From assembly GCA_963804645.1 (NCBI GenBank), contig CAWDRG010000005.1:256001-320000 (forward strand): 64,000 nucleotides of DNA. Direction: 5' to 3'. The position numbers were made by a program, and so were the translations under genes. The notes under the pieces are model-generated. The model searched no databases. It was given only the letters and a program-made list of their open reading frames with translations, and was not told the origin of the DNA. This DNA is from an uncultured Bacillota bacterium. GTDB taxonomy: Bacteria > Sysuimicrobiota > Sysuimicrobiia > Sysuimicrobiales > Segetimicrobiaceae. How positions within the stretch are numbered: position 1 is the first letter of the stretch; each line of letters begins with the position of its first letter. Below, in pieces: positions 45,243-59,173 of this stretch.

Positions 45243-45441
45243 GCGATGCCGTCCGCTGCTGCGTCGTACGAGAGTCATTCGCCTCCGGATCGCAACGCCC
45301 TGCCGGCGCGCCGCGCGCCCCCTAGTACTACAAAGTCACGATTCTGGCAGGATTTTGCCCGCATGTGCCGAACAGCGGTAGTCGCGTACGCATACATCGC
45401 ACCTCTTGTCGCAGCAGACGTCGTCGTAGCAGGTGTCGCCG

Positions 45442-46652
45442 ATGGCCAATGCGCCGCCTTTTGCCGATCCCGATCTGCGTCAGCGGTTGATCGAGTACCT
45501 CACGGCCGTCCTGCCGGAGTTGGGCCGCAAAGATCGCCGACCGTGGGCGCAAGCGTATGTGCGCGGCTTGCTGCTGGAAGGCGAGCGGAAATCGATCGAA
45601 CCCATGGCCAAGCGCTTGCCGGACGGCAATGTGCAAGCCATGCAGCATTTCATTGGAAAGAGCCCGTGGCCGTATGAGCCGGTCCGCCGGCGGTTGGCTG
45701 GTGTGTTGTGCGCGGAAATGGGCTCCGGGCTGTGGATCGTCGATGACACCGGGTTTCCCAAGCAGGGCAAGCATTCCGTCGGGGTGGCGCGGCAGTACTC
45801 GGGCACGTTGGGCAAGGTGGCCAACTGCCAAATCGCGGTCAGCCTGCACCATGCCACGACGCTGGCGAGTCTGCCCATCGACTGGGCGTTGTACCTGCCG
45901 GAAGCCTGGGCCGCGGATCGCGCGCGCTGCGCCCGCGCGGGCGTGCGGCGGCGTCCGTGGACTACCGCCCCAAATGGCGGTTGGCGCTCGAGATGATCGA
46001 TCACGCTCGACAGTGGGGCCTGGGGGACCAACGCGTCGTCGCCGATGCTGGCTATGGCACCATCGCCGATTTCCGTGCGGGCTTGCGGGAGCGGCAGTTG
46101 CCCTATGCCGTGGGCGTCGAATCCGGCACGGGCGTGTGGATGCGGTATCCGCGACGTCGGCGGCACCCACCCACCGTGCGCGGCCGGCCGCGTACGCGCT
46201 GGGACTACGGGGGCCAGCGGCCGCCCAGCGTCCTCGAGGTGGCGCGCGCGTTGCCAAAAGCCGCTTTTCATACTGTGACGTGGCGCGAAGGGAGCCAGGG
46301 CCAGCTCCGGTCGCGCTTCGCGCACGTCCGCGTCTGACCGTCCCACGGCTTTCATGAGGGCAAGCCGCCGGAGGCCGAACAATGGCTGCTCATCGAGTGG
46401 CCGGCCGACGCCGCCGAGCCGACCAAATACTGGTTCGTCACCGGCCCGCGGCGGCTGTCGCTGTTGCCACTGGTGCGCTGGGCGAAGGCGCGCTGGCGAA
46501 TCGAGCAAGATTATGAACAGTTGAAGGGCGAACTGGGCCTCGACCACTTCGAAGGACGCCGCTGGCTGGGCTGGCATCATCACGTGACGATGACCACAAT
46601 GGCGTACGGGTTTCTCGTGCGCGAACGGCTTCGTCCCCTCGGGAGTAAAAAA
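45442..46652 (+). pseudogene. IS701 transposase, main part (frameshift near 45945, in-frame TGA at 46335-46337, interrupted at the A-tract)
   Basis: GERKSIEPMA, DDTGFPKQGKHSVGVARQYSGTLGKVANCQ, ADAGYG, RWRIEQDYEQLKGELGLDHFEGR. Confidence 0.93.
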
Positions 46653-46655
46653 GGT

Positions 46656-49600
46656 TCATCCGGCATTTTCGGGAATTCCAGGAAACGCGGCCATGATCTT
46701 CAGGAAGAAGTAGCCATCGTCTCGGTAGCCGTACCCCATGCGCTTGAGGACCTTGATCTTGTGGTGGGTAGAGGACGGCCTCGGATCGACCCTTGCGCCG
46801 TCCTCCCCCCGCAGAACCCGGCGTGCAGGTTTCCCGCACCGGGCTCCCCAGAGCGACATTCACGCCTCGGCCTCGTCAGACCGTCGGATGTAGAGTCTTC
46901 GGGCGTGGCAGTTCAAACCACGAGCGGCTCCTGAGGTAGCTCCAGAACAACCGGTGCCATTGGCCGCGCCGACGCAACGTTCTTAGCCACTGGAGCTGGA
47001 CCTCATGACAGACCCAGTCCAACTTCCGCTCGCAGTGGTGTAGGGCGAAGTACTGGTAAAATCCCCGCAGCATCGTCGTAAGGTGAGCCTGTTGCGCCCG
47101 GCGATTCCAGTGCATATGGCTCCTGAGCCATTCATGGGTGCGATCCAGAAACGTCCTGCAGCTGTCGTGTGCCGGAATGCGCACCACGGCGAACTTGCCC
47201 CGCCGGTCCCTACCGCACACGTGCTTGAAGCCCAGAAATACGAACGTGCCTGGCTTCTCTCCATGTGCGGCGGCCCGCTTTCGGGCCTCTCGCCCAAACA
47301 GCAGTAGGCGCGTCTTCTCTGGTTTTAACTCCAGGCCGAACTTCTGCATCCGCTCCGCCAGTTCGCGGCCGAAGGCGTTCGCTTCCGCCTGATGCTCGAA
47401 ACATACCACGAAGTCGTCCACAAACCGAATCAGGTGAGCGGCCCCTTGACAGCTCCGCTTGAACCGTCGCTCGAACCAGAGGTCGAGGACGTGGTGCAAG
47501 TAGAGATTGGCGAGCACGGGGCTGATCGGATTGCCTTGCGACACGCCCTCCCTGTTTCGGACGACAACTCCGTCGTGCATCACCCCGGCCCTGAGCCACT
47601 TGCCAATGAGCCTCAGGATTACGGGATCGGCGATGCGATGGGCCACCATCTTCCGTAACCAGTCGTGATTGATGCGTGTGAAGTACCCGCAAATATCCGT
47701 CTCGAAGACGTACTGTGCTTTCCCCGCAATCAGATGGCCGCGAAGATCTCGCAATGCCTGGTGCGGGTTACGCCCGGGCCGGTATCCGTATGAGCACTCC
47801 ACGAAGTCCTGCTCGTAGATGGCGCTGAGAATCCGCGCCACTGCGCGCTGCAGTAACCGGTCTTCCACCGTGGGAATGCCGATCGGGCGCATAGCCGACG
47901 TGTCCCCAGGTTTGGGGATGTCTACCCGTCGCACCGGTGGAGCCTGATACCGCCCTGCTTTCAGTCGTTCCCAGAGATCGACGACCCGTATCTCCAGATC
48001 GCGCTCGAACTGCGCGCATGTCTCTCCATCCACTCCGCTGGCACCCCGCCGGTTCATCTGCTGCCAAGTTTCTTTCAGAAACTCTGGCGTCAGAATGTGC
48101 GCCAGCGACGTGAAGCGGCACTTCGGGTCTGCCTTGGCTTTGATCGCTATCCCGGCCAGTCCGGTGGTCACCCTGATCCTCCCTCTGAAGGTGGAGGGGA
48201 TGTTTCCCCGACCAAGGTCGTACGCTCTGCCCCGCCGCTTCCCCATGTACGCGGCTCTCCCGCGCTCCGAGTACTACCAGCGGGTCCGACTTCCACCGCG
48301 GCGTTTGCCTCTCTTCGGTCGAACCATCTCGATCGGCATACTCGATCCACTCGATCAAGACCGCGGTGGATCTCCCAGGTCCCTCGACGCGTCCGTCTCC
48401 GTCCGTGCCGTGCTCTCAGACCCCGCCGGGGTCTCCGGCATCCTCGCCCTAACGGATGCGTACTGTTGCCTTCCACGATAACAACCGTGTCGGCCCCCGG
48501 ATTAGGAAGTCACGAGGCTCAATCGCTTCCTTTGCAGTACGGCCCGGACGTCGCCCTGTCTACGCTTAGCCCATGTCGTTACCTCCATGAGCCCAAGACT
48601 CGGTTCCCGGTGGGTGGCTGGCCCTTGCCGGGGCGGGAATTGCACCCGCTGGACGCGCCAGATTTGTCCTGGCGCGCTGTTGATGCCCTCGAGGAGGCTG
48701 GTGTGTAACGGATAGCGACAGTGCGCGATGATCCCGGGGAGCCGCATCTTGAGATGGCGGGCAAACGTCTTGAGGGGTTCAATGCGACTGCGGATGGCAC
48801 GGTGGTACCAGTCGGTGAAGAAGCGGGTGGCGGCGCCAGGATAGGTATAGTCCCACATCTGCTTGAGATCATCCTTCAGCACGTAGACGGCCGCAAGCCG
48901 CCGGTTGGCTGCCAAGAGGTCCTGGAGTCGTACGCGATCCTCCGGTTTGACGTTCTCACGATTGCGCAAGAGGAGCCACCGCGCGCCTTTGATCACCTTG
49001 CGGGCTTCTTTGTCGCGCCGCACGCGATTGGCTTCGTCCACGCGCACCCGGTCAATGACTTCGCGCCCGTACTTGGCGACCACGTGGAAGAGGTCATAGA
49101 CAAGGACCGCGTGCGGACAATGGGCGCGCACTTCTTCTTCGTAGGCCGTGTTCATATCCATCACCACCGCCTGCAGACGCTTGCAGCCCTCGCCACCTAA
49201 CAGCGCGAAGAAAGGACGGACGTCGTCGCGACTCCGGCCTTCGCCGACCCAGAGCACGCGTTTGCGCCGGGGTTCGACCACCACCGTGGCGTAGCGGTGG
49301 CCCTTTCGCAGGGCGAATTCATCCATCGCAATCGTTGTCACGTTGGACAGGTCCACCGGGAGCAACTGCTCTGCCAACGCGGCCACGTCCAGGTTTTTCA
49401 CGGTGTCCCAGTCGAGGCCGTAGAACTCTGCCACGTGCTTCACCGGCAGGATGCGGCAGAGCCGGACCACGCTCTCCGCCAGGCGCTTGGTCACCCGGTC
49501 CCAGGCCGACAGCCAGGACAGGGCCTCGATTTTGGGGCCGCACGTGGGACAGGCAACGCGGTAGCGCGGCACCCATACGTGAGTCTCGGCGTCGAGCAGC

Positions 49601-49809
49601 GGCAGATCCCGGATGCAGCGGACCACCATCTCATGCGCCTTCGCCGTCTCTTGGCCGCACCCGGAGCACCGGAAGGTCCGCTTCTCGCGGGCCAGCGTGA
49701 TCTCCACCCGCGGTTTGCCGGCTCCCGTCGTTGGTTCGATGCGCTCCACCAGCTTCACCCGATAGCATTCCCACCCGACCAGCACATTGGTAGACTGATC
49801 ATGAGGCAA
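46656..49809 (-). CDS. ISL3 transposase interrupted by a group II intron (exons 48678-49809 and 46656-46762)
   Basis: CxxC zinc-finger motifs, MDEFALRKGHRY, VMDM, YDLFHV; joining the exons restores LEGINNKIKVLKRMGYGYRD. Confidence 0.9.
46763..48677 (-). mobile_element. Group II intron A
   Basis: Domain V GAGCCCGGTGCGGGAAACCTGCACGCCGGGTTC followed by a domain VI-like hairpin; RT ORF; 5' end GCGCG; boundaries set by restoring the ISL3 reading frame. Confidence 0.88.
46876..48246 (-). CDS. ltrA: Group II intron reverse transcriptase/maturase (no endonuclease domain); start uncertain
   Basis: GVDG, RPIGIPTVEDR, SYGYRPGR, SQGNPISPVLANLYL, FVDD in place of YADD. Confidence 0.92.
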   Translation of the reverse strand: MGKRRGRAYDLGRGNIPSTFRGRIRVTTGLAGIAIKAKADPKCRFTSLAHILTPEFLKETWQQMNRRGASGVDGETCAQFERDLEIRVVDLWERLKAGRYQAPPVRRVDIPKPGDTSAMRPIGIPTVEDRLLQRAVARILSAIYEQDFVECSYGYRPGRNPHQALRDLRGHLIAGKAQYVFETDICGYFTRINHDWLRKMVAHRIADPVILRLIGKWLRAGVMHDGVVVRNREGVSQGNPISPVLANLYLHHVLDLWFERRFKRSCQGAAHLIRFVDDFVVCFEHQAEANAFGRELAERMQKFGLELKPEKTRLLLFGREARKRAAAHGEKPGTFVFLGFKHVCGRDRRGKFAVVRIPAHDSCRTFLDRTHEWLRSHMHWNRRAQQAHLTTMLRGFYQYFALHHCERKLDWVCHEVQLQWLRTLRRRGQWHRLFWSYLRSRSWFELPRPKTLHPTV

Positions 49810-50338
49810 GGTGCTCCCCCTTCCCTGAAGCGCCGTGTTCGCAGCACGTGCTCAAGGATAGGGGTGTGGTACCTTGCCTTCAACCTATACGGCTATCCCG
49901 GTTTTGCCTGAAGAACCGTAAAAAAACCATAATGGCAAAAGTAGCATCGGCGGCATGTGCGACCACTGATGTCGAGGATTCATCCTTAGGCATTCTGAAG
50001 ATCAACGACGGCGAAGTGACGCGTCAGGCACTCGAGCACAGCAGTGATCATTGTACGCAAATCAGTTCGAGTCGTGAACGCGATAGAGAGACGCGTCGTG
50101 GAAGACTATAGGGGCTTGCTCGGGGCGGAGGTTTGCCAGAGCTGTTCCAGTCGGGTGAGGAATGCCTCAGGCGCTCTTCGGTATCGCGCTCTCTGACGTC
50201 GAGGTTCCTGACTCGCGGCCCAACGTTGCATCTCCGTCCGGTATTGGTCGGTGGGAACGTGAGCAAACCATTCGATCAGGACGTCTGGAGGCAGATCGAC
50301 TGCATATACCGCCAATGCTCCGTACCGCATAATGTAGC

Positions 50339-50379
50339 CCTCGGTAATGGTAGCGTATGAAACGCTACCACTACCGAGG
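50339..50379. repeat. Terminal palindrome, left
   Basis: CCTCGGTAATGGTAGCG-TATGAAA-CGCTACCACTACCGAGG. Confidence 0.9.
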
Positions 50380-51154
50380 TCTGGGTGGTGGGAGCGGCAG
50401 CGGTGGTGGCACCACGCCCGGCGGAGGCAGTCCCGGGGGTGGGAGTCCCACTCCGGGTGCGAACTCCGGTCCTGGAAGCAGCGGTGGGAACGGGGGAAAC
50501 GAGCTCCGTGGCCCCCACTTCTCCGGCCAACACTGTCATTACTATATGGCCCGTAACTCCGGCGCCCGCGCCGACGACGCCGGCGGTCCCGGCAGTGCCT
50601 GCTGCACCGACACCGGTTGCGGCGACACCGGCAGTGGGCCGACACCCGCGAGGCCTCCAGTGGCGCCGGCGGCCGCTCCTGCGCCAGCGGCTCCGCAGCG
50701 TGCTGGGTTCGGCCCCCCCGTGCTCGGAGGTAGCGGGCCGACTGTGGTACTCGGCGCCCCGCGTCAGCACGGCGCCGGAACATGCCGCTCTCAGGGCGGT
50801 TCAAGGACAGCCGACCAAGTTACCATTTGGGGGCATGTCGGAAACAAAGCGCTCCCTAAATCACGCTCGGACGCTGGATTGGAACGCTCATGGCTTCAAT
50901 GGGGGCGATTTTGTTCGGGTGGAAGGTCGAGTAGTTGGAGAGCGCCTGGCACTTTCAGTTCGCGGTGCGGCCGGAGAATCGGGATACCGCTGCTCATCTG
51001 GGGCGCCGGTACGGGTGGTGCGCCTGTCTTGCAAAAAGCGGATTCCAGCGTCGATTCTGAGGTTACGAGCCGAACGACGGCACGGTGCCGGACATCCCGG
51101 CAGCGAGACGTGCGTCACGCGGTGGGACGGCCCGCTGAGCCCGTGACAACGCAT

Positions 51155-51184
51155 CGGGGAGCGAGTGCGAACCCTCGCTCCCCG
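51155..51184. terminator. Hairpin downstream of the PEP-CTERM gene
   Basis: CGGGGAGCGAG-N8-CTCGCTCCCCG. Confidence 0.55.
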
Positions 51185-51234
51185 TCAATTTGAAGAGACT
51201 TGGTCGCGTTCCTTAACGCTTTACCGGTCTCCGA

Positions 51235-51879
51235 TTAGCGCCTCACCTTGCGGCGAAGCAGACCGGCGGCGCCGACCAGTCCGAAGGCGAACATCGAGAG
51301 CGAACTCGGTTCCGGTACGGGATTAGGGGCGATCTGGCCGGCTGAGATCTGTCCCTCCAGATCAAACCATGCGGTGCCAGTGTTCGCCAAACCGCTGCTG
51401 CCTCCCACGAGAACGGTGCCGCTGTCCAGGCTCGGGCTGATGTTAGCAAAAGTGGCGCTCGCGCTCTCGTAGTCATTTGGGTCGGTAGATGTGAAGGAGC
51501 CGCCGCACTGAGCGGCCGTTGGGCTGGGAGAATAAGTGCCGATGCATGCACCGTCGCCGTCAAAGCCAAATACTCCGCTACCCACGCCGCCGGTGATCGC
51601 AACGCTCTTCAGTGTGCCACCCGACGAATTCAGAACGCCGATCAAGGTGTCTTCGATGCCGTCGAAGGGCCCCTGATCAGGCGATGCCGTGGTGACATTA
51701 AACCCCGTGGCTACGTCTGAACTGTTGACCGATGTAACCGTAAGCAGCAGTTCGCATCCATTAGTGTCATTACCGACAGGCGGGCACTCGGTAAAGGAGG
51801 CGGCATACACTGCGGGGGTGACTGCCCAGAGAAGCACCGCTACCGCAGTCAGCGCAATACCCCATCTTATCGTCCTCAT
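51235..51879 (-). CDS. PEP-CTERM sorting-domain secreted protein
   Basis: AAGGAGG RBS; signal peptide; C-terminal VPEPSS + TM helix + RRKVRR. Confidence 0.92.
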   Translation of the reverse strand: MRTIRWGIALTAVAVLLWAVTPAVYAASFTECPPVGNDTNGCELLLTVTSVNSSDVATGFNVTTASPDQGPFDGIEDTLIGVLNSSGGTLKSVAITGGVGSGVFGFDGDGACIGTYSPSPTAAQCGGSFTSTDPNDYESASATFANISPSLDSGTVLVGGSSGLANTGTAWFDLEGQISAGQIAPNPVPEPSSLSMFAFGLVGAAGLLRRKVRR

Positions 51880-52844
51880 GCACTTACCTCCTTGATCGCT
51901 GTGGTCGCTGTGGCATTGCTGGGTGGGCTACGGCATCCCCCCTCTCGTTCCGGGGCGACGAGGATCGCGTCTGCGGAGCGCTGACGCCCTCGGCGCGGAG
52001 TCTGACCTCGGAATGGGGCTCGCTGTCCGAACCCATCCTCCATCGAACTCGAATGTGCTTTCCCGTCCCACGGGGGAAATCTTTGTATCACTTGAATGAA
52101 ACAGGCCACAAAAACGAACGACCGCTGGTCGGTGCGGGTTACGAACGTGGCTGCCGAGGCGATTCTGATTACTTCCTTTGAAGGAGGCTTTGGAAGGAGG
52201 CTTTCTGGACCGGGGCGGCAGCAGTCCGGCGCGCACGTCATCCCGCGAGATGCACAGCTTCGCCCCGCGGCGTCGGTTCACTCGATTCGGTCCGCGCGGA
52301 TGGCCGAGCCCAGCGCCGGGCCTGGTCGAGGCTCTCTAAACGGGCGGTCCGAAGCGGGTGCGCGAGCGTCGCAGCGCGGCACGCAGCCCCGGGCGGGCCA
52401 ACTGAAGCGGCGCGCGACCCACCGCGTATCGTACCGTGAGCGGCGGCCGGCGGTGTTTGGTTGCGATCAGGCTTGCCACCTCGGCCCAGATCGCGCTCAG
52501 CAATCCGTTCACGGCGTGTCGGCGGGGCGCCGTGCGCCGATGCGCCAACGCGTGACGGAGCGCGCCGCGGAGCGCTTCGGTGCTCGTGGTGGGAGCGTCG
52601 GACGCGACCGCCACTCGGCGCGCCGCCCAGGCCAAGGCATCTCGCACCGTGTCCTGCCGCACGATGTGCGGGCATCGGGCGGCCGCGCCGATCATCTGGT
52701 CGGGAGCGAAAGCCTCGTCGGAGGCGTGCGCGAGCTGCGTGACGGTGAGCGCCTCGACGAGGGCACGAGCGTCCTCTCTCAGCGGACCGGTGGCAGCGGT
52801 CTGGGGGAGCTGCGTCAGGGCCTTGTCAATGATTAGCCGAACGG

Positions 52845-52879
52845 GGTAGTGGTAGCGTTCCCCAAACGCTACCACTACC
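52845..52879. repeat. Terminal palindrome, right
   Basis: GGTAGTGGTAGCG-TTCCCCAAA-CGCTACCACTACC. Confidence 0.9.
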
Positions 52880-53844
52880 TAGCCATCCCATGACTTGCGC
52901 CCCGTGGTTCGGCGGTGTGCGCTCTTGGCGTGGCGCAAGAACCGCTCCAGATCGTTGTTCGTCCGCGGGATCTCGGGGTGCAGAAAACAGGTGAACAGCG
53001 TGTCGCCGAATCCCTGGGTGTACTTTTGGAAGGATTCCGCGAACAGTTCGTGCGCTGGCTGAGTCACCGCGGCCTGTGCGACCGCGGCCATGAGCGTGCG
53101 CACTCCCATCTTCGCCTGCGCCGCAGCATCATGGGGAAGCACGCCAGGGTATTTCTCTGGATCGATGACCCGAGCGAGACCCAGTAACCACGTGTGTTGC
53201 TGCTTGAGCGTGGCGTAGTCAGCGCCGTAGATCTGGTGGCGAGTTGCGATGTGGGTCAGGGTCCGCATCATGGGTACGGGCCGGACCGCAAAGCACCGCT
53301 GCAGGGAGGCGTAGATACGCTCCAGATTCTCATAGGCGCGGATGCCCCCGGGTGCAAGTGGCGGCAGTCCGTTGGATCCCGTCGAGGGAGAGCACCAGCC
53401 CGCCGTTCTGCTCGATTTGGCGGCGCACCGCCTCGACTTGCTGGCCGGCCGTGCACCCGAGAAGTGCGAAGTACGCTTCGTAGAGGCCCTGGACGTGGCG
53501 CGCACTGATGATGACCCCGCGCTGGCCGAGCTCGGCATGGATCTCAGCCCGCGTGCAGTGGTCCACCGTCCGGAGGCGCCCCACCGTGACCAGCACGTCC
53601 ATGCCGTACGTCGAGCCCTTGAGGCTCAAGCCTTCGGCGACGGCGGAGCGGTACACGCGGCGGTCGCAAGCGGCAGTCCAGCATCGATACCCGAGGCTCC
53701 CGGCCCAGAGCACTTCGGACAGGCCGATGATATGTTTGCGCCAGACGGGGTGACTGTACACCAGAGGCGCCCCGCACACCAGACAGGTCCGGCATTCGGG
53801 GCGGAAGTAGACGCGCCGGGGAGCCGCAAACACACGCGCGCACC

Positions 53845-54234
53845 TCACGGGCGCTTGCGGATCACCTCCGCAGGATCGAGTTGGGCGGCTTGCCGAAGGC
53901 GCTCCAAGAGACCTTGGAGCTCGACGTCGAGCGCGCGCAGGTGTCGAGCATGCGCCCGCCATCGCCGATACGCGCGGGCCGCTGTGCTGGCCGGACCCGC
54001 CTTGGTCGGCGCCACGGGGAACACGTGCGGCGTGCCCGCACGAAACACTGAGAGGCACCAATAGGGGCCGTGTTTCTTCCCCCGCATGCAGCGGCACCCC
54101 GGCTTCCCGCACACCCGGTAGCGCTTGAACAAAGAGCCGGTCAGAGTCGGCCCGATCGCTAACGCCTCCTCCAAGACAGCGGTTCTCAGGCGGTTCACCG
54201 CTTGCACCTTGGTGCGCAGGGCCTTGGGACCCAT
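53845..54234 (-). CDS. DUF6788-like small Cys/His protein, translationally coupled to the transposase
   Basis: GSL...CGKPGCRC..GKKHGPYW motif; GGAGG RBS; GTGA overlap with the transposase start. Confidence 0.75.
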   Translation of the reverse strand: MGPKALRTKVQAVNRLRTAVLEEALAIGPTLTGSLFKRYRVCGKPGCRCMRGKKHGPYWCLSVFRAGTPHVFPVAPTKAGPASTAARAYRRWRAHARHLRALDVELQGLLERLRQAAQLDPAEVIRKRP

Positions 54235-54392
54235 CCGCCACCTCCGTCTTCTCTATCTGCCACTAGTATTCCTTTTCATAATGCCAGATCTCAAACCAAA
54301 AAGAAAGGAGCATGCGAAGGAGCGCCGCCGAGCACTCCAGTCACCTGCTCCAGTGCCTGTCTATGGCCGTGATGCTACTTTTGCCATTATGG

Positions 54393-54525
54393 AAAAAAAA
54401 CGGCGCGCGTCCCCACCGTGCCGCAGGTGCGGGCCCAGCTCCAGTACGTCCTGAAAACCTGGACCGGTCGCTGCAGCGTCTGCGGTCACCTCGTGCGCCG
54501 TCCGACCAAGAATGACCCATCTTAG
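54393..54525 (+). pseudogene. Displaced 3' end of the IS701 transposase
   Basis: Encodes TARVPTVPQVRAQLQYVLKTWTGRCSVCGHLVRRPTKNDPS*, continuing RPLGSKK, immediately before the right IR. Confidence 0.75.
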
Positions 54526-54536
54526 ATGTGACTTTG

Positions 54537-56394
54537 GTCGAGTAGGACCAGCGATCGCTCGCTGGGACCCCTCTGCCGAACGGCTCGTACGGATCTCCCG
54601 TAAGCCGCTCTACCCCATGCCGACTCGTGAGTCATCAGGAATATATCCGAAGAGAGTGGAGCCCCAGACGGCGGTAGAAGAATGTTTCAGAGTATCGCCG
54701 CCAGTTCGCCGTGCGCCAGCGTTTGGCCATGAAGGCCCGCAGCCTCCGAAGGATCCAGCGGTCCAGCGGCCTCCCGATCCGTCGCAAGTCGCCAATCCGG
54801 AAGAATCGTCCCCAACCGCGGAGCACTGGATTTAGCAGCGCCACGATCTCGTCCGCCCGACGCGGTTGGTTACGCCGCGTAAGATGACGGACCTTGTCCC
54901 GGAGCCGCTGTATTGCTCGCGCCCGTGGCTGTAGGTGCAGTCCCTCCTCATCGCGCCAGAAGCGGAATCCAAGGAACTCAAATCCTTCCGTAATGTGAAC
55001 GACCCGCGTCTTCGCAGGATGCAGTCGCAGTCCCAACTGCCCCTCCAGAATCTGGTGGACCTGCTCCAAGGCCGCCTCGGCGTCCTCGCGCGTTCGGCAC
55101 ACGATGACACTGTCATCAGCATACCGGACCGCGCGATGTCCTGCCGCGAGCATCTGATGATCGAAGGTGTTCAGAAACGCATTACTGAGCAGCGGCGAAA
55201 CTACACCCCCTTGCGGGGTGCCCGCTACCAGGGTACGCTTCTTGCCCTCCTCCATCACCCCGGCCTGGAGAAACGCCTGCACGAGCCGGAGAATCCGCCC
55301 ATCCGCCACCACCTCGGCGACTGCGGCCAGCAGCCGCGCATGGGACGCGGTGTCGAAAAACTGTTCAATATCGATTTCGACAATCCACTCGCCCCCGTGA
55401 TGCAGGCTCGCCATCACATCGCCAATGGCCTGATGCGCTGACCGTCCTGGACGAAACCCGTAACTGGTCTCCGCAAACCGCGGCTCAAAGTGCGGTTCCA
55501 GCCGCAGACGCATCGCCTGCGCCACGACGCGATCTCGTACAGCAGGGATCGCGAGGCCGCGACGACGTCCATCGGGTTTGGGAATGTAGACGCGACGCCC
55601 GGGCTGGGGCACATAGGCATCGTCCTTGAGGGCCGCCTGGAGTCCTTGCAACTCCTCATCCAAGTGTGCCTCAAATGCCTCAAGGCTCTGACCATCCACG
55701 CCCCACGTCCCGTGGTTCGCCTTGACCAGCGTCCAGGCCCGCCGCAGATTCGGCAGGTACCAGACCTTGTCGATGAGCGAGCCGACCTTGATCGGATGCA
55801 CGTCCTCCGCCACTCCTCCTCCTTCCTGACCAGAGTCCTGTTGGTCGGGGTCTGCACCGGTCGCGGCTCGGGAGCTGCTCATGACAGAGATCCCTTACCC
55901 CGCGCTCGTCAAGCCGATCCCGCCTTCAGGCCACCAAGCATGGAGCGGGTCCCTTCGCTCTGCCAGGTTTCCCTGACCTCATCGCTACGTCTGGACCCGT
56001 CCGACTCCTGAACGTGCATCGGGTTGGCTTTTCCCCTTCCGGGTTATACCGTCCCTACCTGTCCGCGCAGGACCGAACCCTACTCGCGACAGGACACGCT
56101 CAGGCCTCCCCGGGTCATGCTGCTCTCTGTCCCACCATGCTGCCCGCACCCACGACTGATCCCCCCTGGTCTTCTCTGGATGCCCCTTCCTCCAGTACTA
56201 GCAGAGTCGGGCCTCCAGGGGTTCGCGCCGACCGGTTCGCCTGGCTTCGACAGCCTCGGCTGCGGCCTGGTGGTTTGCCTCAGGTCCTTCAGATTCCGCC
56301 TCGCGACGGACACCCTACCCTTTTCGGCTACGGTCCGCATCCAGCTGGACCGGCAGGTCTTTCACCTGCGAGAGAACAGCACTGCCGGGCACAC
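54537..56394 (-). mobile_element. Group II intron B, inserted in the IS701 right IR
   Basis: 5' GTGTG at 56394; 3' ...CTACTCGAC at 54537; domain V GAGCGGCTTACGGGAGATCCGTACGAGCCGTTC; removal restores the IR exactly. Confidence 0.92.
54635..55882 (-). CDS. ltrA: Group II intron reverse transcriptase/maturase (no endonuclease domain)
   Basis: GVDG, IPKPDG, SYGFRPGRSAHQA, GTPQGGVVSPLLSN, RYADD, FEFLGF, LNPVLRGW. Confidence 0.95.
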   Translation of the reverse strand: MSSSRAATGADPDQQDSGQEGGGVAEDVHPIKVGSLIDKVWYLPNLRRAWTLVKANHGTWGVDGQSLEAFEAHLDEELQGLQAALKDDAYVPQPGRRVYIPKPDGRRRGLAIPAVRDRVVAQAMRLRLEPHFEPRFAETSYGFRPGRSAHQAIGDVMASLHHGGEWIVEIDIEQFFDTASHARLLAAVAEVVADGRILRLVQAFLQAGVMEEGKKRTLVAGTPQGGVVSPLLSNAFLNTFDHQMLAAGHRAVRYADDSVIVCRTREDAEAALEQVHQILEGQLGLRLHPAKTRVVHITEGFEFLGFRFWRDEEGLHLQPRARAIQRLRDKVRHLTRRNQPRRADEIVALLNPVLRGWGRFFRIGDLRRIGRPLDRWILRRLRAFMAKRWRTANWRRYSETFFYRRLGLHSLRIYS

Positions 56395-56399
56395 TAGTA

Positions 56400-57788
56400 C
56401 TAGGGTTTGGCGGGCGCGGACGGCGTGACGGTCGACGGCGCGTGGCTCGGCGTGATCGTCGAGCCGGGGCGTGTGGCCGGCGCCGCGCTGCCGGCGGGCG
56501 GCTGCAGGCCGAGAAAATCCTTAATCGGCTGCGGGAAGCTATCCAGCACCCCGGCCGCGAGCGTGTACTGGAGTCCGAGCGCGCGGTTCACCGCGACCCA
56601 CCCGTTGTACTGTTTGTAAAACTGCACCGTGAATCTCGCGTCGGCGCCGCCGTCGGTCTGCACCTCGAACGCCGGGGCGGCCGCGAACGAGGACGTCAGC
56701 GCCTGCACGCGGTCCGCGTCCATCAGGTTCACCGACGAAAACATGTCGGAGACGTTCTGATCGCTCAGGTCGCTCCCGGTAAACCCCGGGCCCTGACGGC
56801 GGACCTCGAGGGTCTTCCCGTTCCGGCGCCACGTGAACACGGTCAAGTCTTGAGGATTGTACGGCAGCACGTGGGTGCTGACGAGCGAGATCGGCGCGGG
56901 GGTCATCCGCCCGTCGAGGTCCGCGTCGAGCTCCATCACCGTGCGGCCGCCGGCGACCATCGCGTACGTCACCTTCGGCCCCTTCGCGAACAGCATCCGC
57001 AGGGGCTCCGGACGCCCCTTCATCGTGAGATCGAGCGTGACGTCCGGATGATCCAGCCCGTAGGGGGCCAGGTCGGTCACGCCGTCATGGAACACCTTGC
57101 CGTCGGAGGTGGTGAGCGGGAAGAACAGATCCGTGACCTTGAAATCGTCGGCCGGCCACGGCCGGCTCCCCTCGATGCGCCAGCGGTCGGGGCCGGTGCG
57201 GTCCACGACCAGCGATTCCGTCGGCGACGTGATGCGCACCTGCTGGACGTCGGCGTTCGCGAAGTCCGCGAGGGTCTTCTGGCGGAGGTCCGCGGCGGTC
57301 TTCGTCAGCCCATCCTTCGCGGTGCTGTCGACGACGTACAGCGAGGTGCCGGGGTCGAGCTTGGCGTAGAGCGCGTTGCCGACCGGCGACGGCTTCCCGA
57401 GCTCCACGGTCACCGATCGCCCGCCGGAAGTGCGCAGCGTCACGCGCACGGTCGGCCGGTCGAGGCCGTACGCCGCGAGATCGGTCGCGCCGCTGAGCGT
57501 CCGCTGGGGCACGATCCCGGTGACCGCGTCGAGGAAGTCCGAGACCGACAAGGAGGCCGCTGGGGTCTGAATCGGACGCGTGATCTGCCAGTGCGTGGGG
57601 TCGGTGCGTGACAGTTCGACCGTCTGGTTTGCGGTCGTGATCGTGATTCCGGTGATGTCGGCCTTCTTGAGCTGCACCAGATGGCTCGCCAGTTCCGCCC
57701 GCTGCGCCTGCGGCCGGTCCACCGCGAAGATGTACGCGGCGATCACCACCACGAGGCCGGCGAGGATGAGCGTCGCGCGGGGGGTCAC
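56400..57788 (-). CDS. DUF4340-domain membrane-anchored protein
   Basis: N-terminal TM; two repeats with DLAxYGLDxP; downstream of a GldG-like gene; the stop codon overlaps the IS701 CTAG. Confidence 0.78.
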   Translation of the reverse strand: MTPRATLILAGLVVVIAAYIFAVDRPQAQRAELASHLVQLKKADITGITITTANQTVELSRTDPTHWQITRPIQTPAASLSVSDFLDAVTGIVPQRTLSGATDLAAYGLDRPTVRVTLRTSGGRSVTVELGKPSPVGNALYAKLDPGTSLYVVDSTAKDGLTKTAADLRQKTLADFANADVQQVRITSPTESLVVDRTGPDRWRIEGSRPWPADDFKVTDLFFPLTTSDGKVFHDGVTDLAPYGLDHPDVTLDLTMKGRPEPLRMLFAKGPKVTYAMVAGGRTVMELDADLDGRMTPAPISLVSTHVLPYNPQDLTVFTWRRNGKTLEVRRQGPGFTGSDLSDQNVSDMFSSVNLMDADRVQALTSSFAAAPAFEVQTDGGADARFTVQFYKQYNGWVAVNRALGLQYTLAAGVLDSFPQPIKDFLGLQPPAGSAAPATRPGSTITPSHAPSTVTPSAPAKP

Positions 57789-59173
57789 AGGGCGCGCCTC
57801 TGGAAGTAGATCGTTCCGCCCGCGAACAGCAGGACGAGCGGCAGCACGATCACGCTCCCGATGAACAGATACCGTCCCTGCGGGCCGGAGATGATGAACG
57901 GGTCGAACGGCGACGTCCGCGGCGCGATGCTGACCAGATCGCCCGATTGGGTCAGCCAGGCGACCGCACTGACGAACAGATCGCGGTTCCCCACGAGGCC
58001 GATCGCCGTGTTCTTGATGAAGCTGCTGTTGCCGAACAGCACCGCGGAGCCCTTCGGAATCGGGGCCGACGCCGGCTTCGGGGCCGGCGGCTTCCCGGGA
58101 GCCGGTGTGGGGGCTGGCGGAGGCGTGCCCGGCGTCACCTCGACCGCGAGCACCGCCGGGCCCTTCACGTCACCCGGCTGGAACCCGGGATCCTTGGATT
58201 CGAGGTTCACCTTCACGTAGCTCTGGTCGGAGCTCTTCACCACCGGCGTCAGGGTCACGGTCGCCGCCTTCGGGTCGGGCACAAGCGGCGTCGCGACCGG
58301 GAACGCCGTGGCGAGGTTGAAGTTCGCCGTAATGTCGTTCGGCGGGTACTGGGCCGCGATCGGCACCGCGAGGTCGCCGCCGAGCAGGCGGGACACCGGG
58401 TCCAGCACGATCCCGCCGGGGGCACTCACGTGGAACGCCGTCGCGAGCCACGCCCGCGTCGCCGCCGGCGTCTGCGGGTCGACCATGATCAGCAGCTTCC
58501 CGCCGCCCCGGTAGTACGCGTCGAGCGCGGCCTCTTCTTGCGGGAGAAGATCCTTCGAAGGCGACGGGAGGATCACCGCGGACGCGTTCGCCGGAATCCG
58601 GCCGGTCTGGACCAGCACCAGCCCCTGCACGTCGTAGCCTTTGTCCGTCAGCGCCTGCTTGGCGGTCCCCATGCCGGTCCGCGTGAAGTCGTCGAGCGCG
58701 ACCTCGCCCTCGCCCTGGATGACGTAGACGGTCTTCTTGGCGGTCTGCAGCACATGGAGCAGGCCGTTCGTCAGGTTCGTCTCACTGTCGTCATCGGCCG
58801 TGTACGAGGCCGACCCGTGCTGGAACACGACCTGCCCGTACGTGGCGATGTGGTACTGCTGCGCCTGGGCGGGGCTGCGGTCGGGATCCACGATGCGGTA
58901 CTGGAAGTCCTTGTTGTAGTACTGGTAGGTCTGCAGCATCTGGATGTACGATGGCGCCGAGTCCGCGCTCGGGAACGCGATCACCTGGACCGGGCCGGGG
59001 AGCGTCTGGAGGACCTTGATCGTCTGGGGTGCGAGCGAGTGCGACCGCGTCGCGGTCAGATCCCAGCGCACGTGGTGCTCCGCCGCCAGATAATTGAGCC
59101 CGACGAGCAGCGCGGCGACCAGCACCGCCGAGACCAGTGCGTTGGTCGTCAACAGGGCGTTGCGGCGCTTCAT
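57785..59173 (-). CDS. GldG-like ABC transporter auxiliary protein
   Basis: RWDLTATRSHSLAPQT, VDPD, GGKLLIMVDP, GNRDLF; N- and C-terminal TM. Confidence 0.82.
   Translation of the reverse strand: MKRRNALLTTNALVSAVLVAALLVGLNYLAAEHHVRWDLTATRSHSLAPQTIKVLQTLPGPVQVIAFPSADSAPSYIQMLQTYQYYNKDFQYRIVDPDRSPAQAQQYHIATYGQVVFQHGSASYTADDDSETNLTNGLLHVLQTAKKTVYVIQGEGEVALDDFTRTGMGTAKQALTDKGYDVQGLVLVQTGRIPANASAVILPSPSKDLLPQEEAALDAYYRGGGKLLIMVDPQTPAATRAWLATAFHVSAPGGIVLDPVSRLLGGDLAVPIAAQYPPNDITANFNLATAFPVATPLVPDPKAATVTLTPVVKSSDQSYVKVNLESKDPGFQPGDVKGPAVLAVEVTPGTPPPAPTPAPGKPPAPKPASAPIPKGSAVLFGNSSFIKNTAIGLVGNRDLFVSAVAWLTQSGDLVSIAPRTSPFDPFIISGPQGRYLFIGSVIVLPLVLLFAGGTIYFQRRAL

Follow-up and report, generated by a model that had tools for sequence, protein, structure and literature searches.

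A class-C-like group II intron that probably homes into the ends of IS701-family elements by pairing across the target-duplication junction

The group II intron RmInt2 of Sinorhizobium meliloti GR4 lacks an endonuclease, and all of its copies are reported in the inverted repeats of ISRm17, which double the number of targets and place them on opposite replication strands, so that one is assured on the lagging strand (Martinez-Rodriguez et al., RNA Biol 2014, PMC4615759). That paper describes retrohoming of RmInt2 as biased toward the lagging-strand template, suggests that the intron controls the mobility of its insertion sequence (IS), and presents RmInt1, an endonuclease-less intron found in ISRm2011-2 of S. 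meliloti, as having multiplied by homing into a multicopy IS (PMC4615759). Here we describe intron B, a complete group II intron that interrupts the right end of an IS701-family element in the genome of an uncultured Bacillota bacterium (Segetimicrobiaceae) from peat. The window, that is, the whole stretch of DNA analysed, comprises 64,000 nt (GCA_963804645.1, contig CAWDRG010000005.1, positions 256,001-320,000, forward strand), and positions given without a contig are those of the window. Going by the published account, intron B is like RmInt2 in being without endonuclease and fixed in the terminal repeats of one IS family, at either end, and like RmInt1 in being endonuclease-less and having a multicopy IS as its home (PMC4615759). 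In contrast to RmInt2, described there as a class D intron that uses exon-binding site 1 (EBS1), a 5-nt EBS2, EBS3 and contacts of its protein with distal exon positions (PMC4615759), intron B has no EBS2, is nearest to class C and resides in IS701. Also unlike RmInt2, its intron-binding site 1 (IBS1) spans the junction between target duplication and IS tip, and the full target arises only after IS701 has inserted at CTAG.

The lack of EBS2 sets intron B apart from the RmInt1/RmInt2 lineage, which is of class D with an EBS2, this separation being made on the published description of RmInt2. The target of RmInt1 lies inside its IS, in the transposase gene and not in a terminal repeat, and RmInt1 too is a class D intron with EBS2. 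Class C introns recognise an IBS1 of 3-5 nt together with a DNA hairpin (a terminator or attC). Intron B resembles the class C introns of Eubacterium rectale (7uim) and Geobacillus (GsI-IIC, 5hhl/6ar1) in the size of its reverse transcriptase (RT), in having neither endonuclease nor EBS2, and in an EBS3 that reads exon position +1, but differs from them in its 7-nt IBS1 and in that no hairpin adjoins the IS701 sites (four flanks) or is consistently found in its relatives. A literature search at title and abstract level returned no paper on group II intron homing into IS701, nor on class C (IIC) introns homing into IS inverted repeats. Homing into IS terminal repeats is already known from RmInt2 and ISRm17; what differs here is the target spanning duplication and tip, the lack of EBS2, the class-C-like RT and the IS701 host.

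The limits of intron B (54537..56394, minus strand, 1858 nt, 5' GTGTG and 3' ...CGAC) are given by three near-identical copies with the same ends, and by a DNA contig of run X1 that joins 54536 to 56395 and skips exactly these 1858 nt (depth 4.3; shorter side 30 letters). On the minus strand, CTAG (56403-56400) is followed by TACTA (56399-56395), the intron from GTGTG at 56394 to ...CGAC at 54537, and CAAAGTCAC (54536-54528), and on the plus strand at 45322-45339 CTAG, TACTA and CAAAGTCAC are present without interruption; all coordinates agree with the placing of the intron 5 nt inside the IS701 right end that an earlier note on this DNA had made. The host element belongs to the IS701 family, since NCBIfam NF033540 matches the N-terminal (206.7 bits) and C-terminal (82.5 bits) pieces of its transposase, which is of the IS701-type DDE kind, and its terminal inverted repeat of 14 bp is perfect. 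The left part (45326..46654, plus strand) includes the terminal repeat TACTACAAAGTCAC and the frameshifted transposase gene, the right part up to the intron (54393..54536, plus strand) holds the transposase C-terminus and the inner right repeat, and the outer 5 nt of the right end (TAGTA, 56395..56399, plus strand) are separated from the rest by the intron. CTAG flanks all IS701 copies on both sides, in the window at 45322..45325 and at 56400..56403, where 56402-56400 form the stop codon of an open reading frame (ORF) with a DUF4340 domain. At the corresponding empty site in G070, a genome of the same genus with flanks 90% identical, the two host flanks meet through a single CTAC, and in contigs from two peat DNA runs position 56400 runs directly into the left host flank. 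The entire 45326-56399 is therefore an insertion, and both the 4-bp CTAG duplication and the IS boundaries are established.

The genome that holds the window (G000, 5.3 Mb; its contigs carry C-numbers) was compared with three genomes of the same genus (G067, G068 and G070) and with metagenome loci (L-numbers), of which 80, from 114 relatives found, were retrieved with an alignment of 24 RTs; 33 of those 80 (L023-L055) show at least 78% protein identity, with the intron at 80-100% nucleotide identity. G000 carries three copies of intron B, one in the window, one on C2 and one split between C22 (intron positions 1-111) and C11 (113-1858). The intron copies differ by 1 and 2 nt over 1746-1858 nt (at most 0.11%), and in all three cases the intron interrupts the right end of an IS701 element 5 nt from its tip, in antisense to the transposase and with CTAG on the outer side. 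Their host elements are much less alike, the window IS (tip TACTA) being 78-79% identical to those of C2 and C11 (tip TATTA), which between them show 27 mismatches and 4 gaps in 1470 (2.1%; 97.9% identical). The divergence of the hosts is much older than the intron, which therefore entered each IS copy separately; the presence of the intron at the same position in diverged IS701 elements supports the earlier proposal that the IS/target junction itself is the target.

Three metagenome contigs with a 100%-identical intron also have it at an IS701 tip. L025 represents the window site, L023 adds a right end in a new flanking context, and in L024 it is the left end of a TATTA-type IS that is occupied, the right end of this element being intact and empty. 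The six junction sets (three genomic and three metagenomic) thus represent two subtypes of the IS, at least four distinct outer flanks and, in one case, a left end, and, as in RmInt2, the position is fixed, always 5 nt from the tip, at four right-end junctions (window, C2, C22/C11 and L023) and one left-end junction (L024). Neither G068 nor G070 has a close RT relative (best identity 40-42%), and together they contain 7 uninterrupted CTAGTACTACAAAGTCA ends, including, in G070, an IS with both ends intact about 1.48 kb apart. Taken with the X1 contig, these ends indicate that the IS is older and more widespread than the intron, and that intron-less ends exist in the sampled population. After intron position 111 the third genomic copy is apparently broken by an element of the IS21 family (IstA with rve and Mu-transpos_C_2; IstB 255.6 bits) at C22:1-2662 (L128), and C11 starts at intron position 113, the C22-C11 join being inferred. 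An internal RT-gene fragment of 512 nt (intron positions 753-1264, 95% identical) stands alone in contig C56 of G067 (L003:1448-1958) and in L051/L052:3501-4011, with uninformative flanks; it is a relic of an older intron copy.

What directs the intron to these ends can be read from its guide pairing. EBS1 (TAGTACT, 56194..56200, minus strand, intron positions 195-201) is the exact complement of the last seven bases of the 5' exon, IBS1 (AGTACTA, 56401-56395, minus strand), which consist of the AG of the CTAG duplication and the 5-nt IS tip TACTA, as the earlier note had recognised. EBS1 occupies the seven 3'-most positions of a hairpin loop of 9 nt, with CUCU/GGAG closing it, recovered by RNAalifold in three contexts and in a centroid fold (300-nt domain I piece, z = -3.13), so that the folding check named beforehand, a loop and not a paired region, had the foreseen outcome. 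In the alignment of relatives this loop is the single hypervariable spot within a conserved domain I. The 22 rows with a 5' exon represent 16 distinct exon/loop combinations and 112 exon-loop cells, of which 102 pair, compared with a mean of 49.5 (sd 7.3) when loops were shuffled among exons; none of 5000 shuffles reached 102. The weakest pairers are L053/L049 (3/7) and L027 (4/7), and single mismatches occur in L028, L039 and L043/44. The TATTA tips keep all seven pairs with EBS1, one of them as a G-U wobble.

A scan of all intron columns against exon positions identified a second contact, intron position 245 (EBS3, a G at 56150, minus strand), which is complementary to exon position +1 in 16 of the 17 sequences with both junctions; its partner IBS3 is the C at 54536 (minus strand), which is base 6 of the IS end. 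The same column scan of relatives found none that tracks exon positions -8 to -12, in agreement with the earlier failure to find an EBS2. A candidate EBS2, AGGGT near intron position 80 opposite ACCCT at -12 to -8 of the window host flank, was rejected, since relatives keep this motif unchanged and it finds no match in the three remaining IS701 flanks. RNA recognition is therefore of AGTACTA and C, that is, two duplication bases, the 5-base IS tip and the sixth IS base. An unoccupied target of this form (AGTACTA, then C) is present at the IS left end (45324..45331, plus strand), where the earlier note had correctly seen an empty AGTACTA at 45324-45330. Positions 56395-56402 (TAGTACTA) form a perfect palindrome, and AGTACTA is consequently found on both strands of a TACTA-type end, with G in place of C after it on the opposite one, so that inward and outward orientations of such an end are told apart only by the EBS3 pair and by whatever reads -8 and -9.

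With so short a pairing, intron B might be a generic short-target intron that enters any AGTAYTA-C site and strikes IS701 ends only because they contain the word; the RNA pairing does amount to 8 bases, the column scan revealed neither an EBS2 nor any further covarying contact, and some relatives tolerate mismatches. We judge this improbable on the count of sites. Uninterrupted AGTACTAC occurs 98 times in the genome, where composition alone predicts about 19, and AGTAYTAC 118 times, 4 of these empty sites being IS701 ends and 114 lying elsewhere, whereas all three genomic and all three metagenomic junctions are at IS701 ends. If the 121 sites were equal, the chance of three out of three insertions falling in the 7 IS ends would be (7/121)^3, or about 2e-4 by hand arithmetic; therefore, more than the 8 paired bases counts. 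A T at -8 leaves just 5 sites, four IS left ends and one other. In the relatives, -8 is T in 15/16 and -9 a pyrimidine in 13/16, a preference that may point to recognition by the protein or to a contact with the pair of G's directly after EBS1.

A guidance by DNA structure of the class C type was also considered, in which the intron would read a hairpin (for instance one made by the palindrome CTAGTACTAG, or by IS ends that abut during transposition) and pairing with EBS1 would be secondary. Intron B encodes an RT/maturase of 415 aa (54635..55882, minus strand) without endonuclease domain (Pfam RVT_1 139.7 bits, GIIM 62.6 bits; TIGR04416 391.5 bits, cut-off 300), and its best matches among RTs of solved structure are 7uim (259.6 bits), 6ar1 (233.4), 5hhl (216.8) and 5hhj (212.8), ahead of a IIB RT (159.7) and LtrA (138.6), in a comparison confined to solved structures that, judged by their names, include no class D, E or F RT. 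The nearest solved RTs are thus of class C, TAGTACTA is palindromic, and a T-run precedes IBS1 in several relatives. We nevertheless consider such guidance very improbable: folds of 70 nt of 5' exon DNA gave no adjoining hairpin in four IS701 flanks and none consistent in the relatives, a loop-less 10-bp palindrome cannot form a stable hairpin, and the 7-bp EBS1 covariation alone accounts for the sites. Because the hairpin-adjacent target and the short IBS1 of that class are both lacking, intron B is provisionally filed as class-C-like only. Finally, hitch-hiking, with one entry into one IS701 that was then multiplied by transposition or duplication of the IS, would account for every copy being in IS701 and for C2 and C11 sharing an IS subtype (97.9% identical), but can hardly be credited when the host elements differ by 2.1-22% and the introns by at most 0.11%, when one contig (L024) has the intron in a left end, and when the transposase would be unlikely to use an end in which 1.86 kb separate the outer 5 bp from the remaining repeat.

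We therefore regard it as highly probable that intron B homes site-specifically into IS701-family ends by EBS1 and EBS3 pairing. In the mechanism that we propose, an active or very recently active intron, endonuclease-less, resembling class C and using EBS1 and EBS3 without EBS2, would read 5'-AGTAYTA and then C through its RNA, with seven EBS1 pairs (the last two bases of the duplication and the 5-nt tip) and one EBS3 pair. As IS701 always duplicates CTAG and its tips are inverted copies of each other, each IS insertion makes one target per strand. Nascent lagging-strand DNA at replication forks probably serves as primer, by analogy with the behaviour of RmInt1/RmInt2 and class C introns, and such priming would explain why only the end with its target on the G-rich strand is occupied. 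The specificity would have come by a change of the EBS1 loop, in a lineage with other alleles at other sites; the intron would be transcribed by read-through from its flank, and cutting the outer 5 bp from the terminal repeat would disable that IS end.

The distribution over strands is consistent with this priming. In the genome, the three canonical IS701 right ends are all occupied and the four left ends are all empty, as is the decayed right end on C17, which has a variant tip. Plus-strand GC skew is negative around all these loci (-0.016 to -0.046). The occupied targets (3/3) are on the minus, locally G-rich strand, and the empty TAGTAYTAC-like sites (6/6, namely the four left ends, the C17 relic end and C17:773009) on the plus, C-rich strand, for which the Fisher probability, calculated by hand, is 1/84. 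The G-rich strand is usually the leading strand. If this applies here, the occupied targets would lie on the lagging-strand template, as far as so small a sample can suggest, in keeping with the bias reported for introns without endonuclease, RmInt2 among them (PMC4615759).

Several points weigh against homing as we propose it. The 98 empty AGTACTAC sites call for determinants beyond the pairing, for which T at -8, C at -9, strand and context are candidates. Four canonical left ends are empty, though the two IS ends of the window are identical from -9 to +9, and the strand bias that might explain this stands on 9 sites and on a replication direction taken from GC skew. The 5' flank of L024, which provides the left-end insertion, equals the C2 flank, and metagenome contigs can be chimeric across repeats; the 5' junction on C22 is linked to the 3' part on C11 only by inference from contig ends. 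The poorly matched sites of L053/L049 and L027 mean that pairing is no absolute rule in the lineage. Splicing and mobility are predicted, and the contigs of the RNA libraries lack a spliced joint.

Those libraries, two from peat and from one study (X15 and X16), gave no contig with a spliced joint or exon coverage; their contigs, which may contain DNA, reach 11 and 12 of 30 bins, none of which lies outside the intron (54621-56321), and this intron-only cover could reflect intron RNA, a higher copy number or DNA carry-over. With regard to transcription, the intron of the window starts 5 nt past the stop codon of two overlapping same-strand host ORFs (DUF4340 and ABC_transp_aux; 56400..59173, minus strand), which end at its 5' exon and are a possible source of read-through. 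A same-strand nucleotidyltransferase ORF ends about 145 nt upstream of the C22 copy, and upstream of the C2 copy there is only a divergent DUF899 gene; the earlier remark on a same-strand operon ending next to the intron is thus correct for the window and does not extend to C2. Read-through transcription is thus plausible for two of the three copies. As to the host elements, the C11 transposase has a full-length frame (431.7 bits, NF033540 profile positions 3-361 of 363), that of C2 is frameshifted, and that of the window is frameshifted and carries many insertions. It is reasonable to expect that a split terminal repeat would block transposition of the IS.

The intron has the features of a bacterial group II intron, with boundaries of the GUGYG / AY type (GTGTG at 56394, ...GAC at 54537) and, in the RNAalifold consensus of 13 distinct sequences, a domain V helix with bulge (54578..54610, minus strand) and a domain VI (54540..54573, minus strand) with a bulged A at 54543, the putative branch point, both with compensatory changes in relatives. 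All copies have kept domain V, domain VI with its bulged A, and the RT/maturase ORF intact. Rfam at gathering thresholds found intron A, another intron in the window (see below), and nothing for intron B; its D5/D6 model gave no match to intron B, and D1D4-4 only a weak one in an E-value search (28.8 bits, cut-off 49). The lineage of intron B is therefore poorly covered by curated models. Its RT clade is tight, with 39 proteins at 79-96% identity and the next at no more than 54% among the 120 best matches listed. In the genome contigs, a single-RT query found no relative, and a search with the clade alignment found 15 loci, none more than 53% identical over a long stretch. For the sister clade at 45-54% (L056-L117), a regular-expression search for intron ends yielded nothing usable.

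The flanks of homologous introns, by which the earlier note had wished to see IS701 targeting judged, support it for the identical introns. The identical introns, three genomic and three metagenomic, are all at IS701 tips. The relatives that are 80-93% identical at the nucleotide level, with 18 junctions on the 5' side and 19 on the 3' side, are never at an IS701 end and carry other EBS1 loops, which match their own exons, about ten EBS1 alleles being present in the lineage. IS701 specificity is therefore a property of this EBS1 allele, not one shared by the lineage as a whole. Relatives are often located directly 3' of same-strand genes, a further likeness to class C introns. In L034, L035 and L036 (EBS1 ATCCCAA) the insertion point is 8 nt into the 17-bp terminal inverted repeat (TAAAACCTATCCCAAAA) of an element of about 82 bp that resembles a miniature inverted-repeat transposable element (MITE); L034 and L035 show the interior of this MITE-like element in opposite orientations, which means that both ends serve as targets, and the L028 site seems to be a diverged copy of the same repeat. 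Around L033, L053 and L037 a search for inverted repeats gave nothing convincing, and transposase genes are found nearby.

A broader interpretation would make intron B a hyperparasite that permanently disarms IS701, each homing event killing one end, in a lineage that retargets EBS1 onto the terminal repeats of abundant small elements. As parts of it, the recognised junction would exist only once the IS has integrated at CTAG, the intron's spread would last while the IS makes new ends, and IS701 ends and the MITE-like element of L034-L036 would represent two such EBS1 alleles. We put this forward as a possible but doubtful extension.

The window IS701 has been hit repeatedly, by an ISL3 element, by an element with 22-bp repeats and by intron B, and the ISL3 element is itself split by intron A. 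The ISL3-family element (46655-49917) lies in the IS701 transposase gene, has imperfect terminal repeats that start GGTTC and recognisable transposase domains, and is flanked by the 8-bp duplication GTAAAAAA (46647-46654 and 49918-49925). Intron A (46763-48677, minus strand) is another group II intron, not related to intron B (Rfam D1D4-6 163.4 bits, D5/D6 48.6 bits; RT ORF 46876-48246) that splits the C-terminal part of the ISL3 transposase gene, with limits set by uninterrupted ISL3 copies on C9 and C15; a GC-rich hairpin is formed by its first ~30 nt, which precede the Rfam domain I match, and its 5' end departs from the canonical GUGYG. The third insertion (49927-54392, 4466 bp) is bounded by perfect 22-bp inverted repeats and occurs once in the genome, between A-runs that fit a 7-8 bp duplication. 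It contains a PEP-CTERM ORF (51235-51879), other ORFs without Pfam matches and an ORF (52879-53538) with a faint IS66 transposase match (E 6e-4), and may be a frameshifted IS66-like transposon with cargo.

Other repeats adjoin IS701 copies elsewhere. A 1.34-kb repeat, present in G000 in at least 7 copies (92-99.9% identical; C1, C21, C15, C17, C19, C13 and C9), adjoins the right-end CTAG of the L024 IS701 (L024:3880-5221), and in G000 it fills the C19 site where L023 carries IS701 and intron; it is probably another IS with CTAG targets. About 110 nt outside the TATTA-type IS701 copies are also repeated, the right flank on C2 (~216296-216410) resembling the left flank on C11 (~244140-244252), with two more copies on C9 (514062-514172 and 1375618-1375727), and TATTA-type IS701 may prefer CTAG within another repeat.

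For the biology of these introns, intron B offers a natural example of a group II intron that gains a new multicopy home by a change of its 7-nt guide loop alone, about ten EBS1 alleles, each matched to its exon, being present in a ribozyme that is otherwise 80-93% conserved. It also extends the habit of landing in IS terminal repeats to a different intron type and a different IS family and, if the split repeat truly blocks transposition, such introns would limit the IS701 load.

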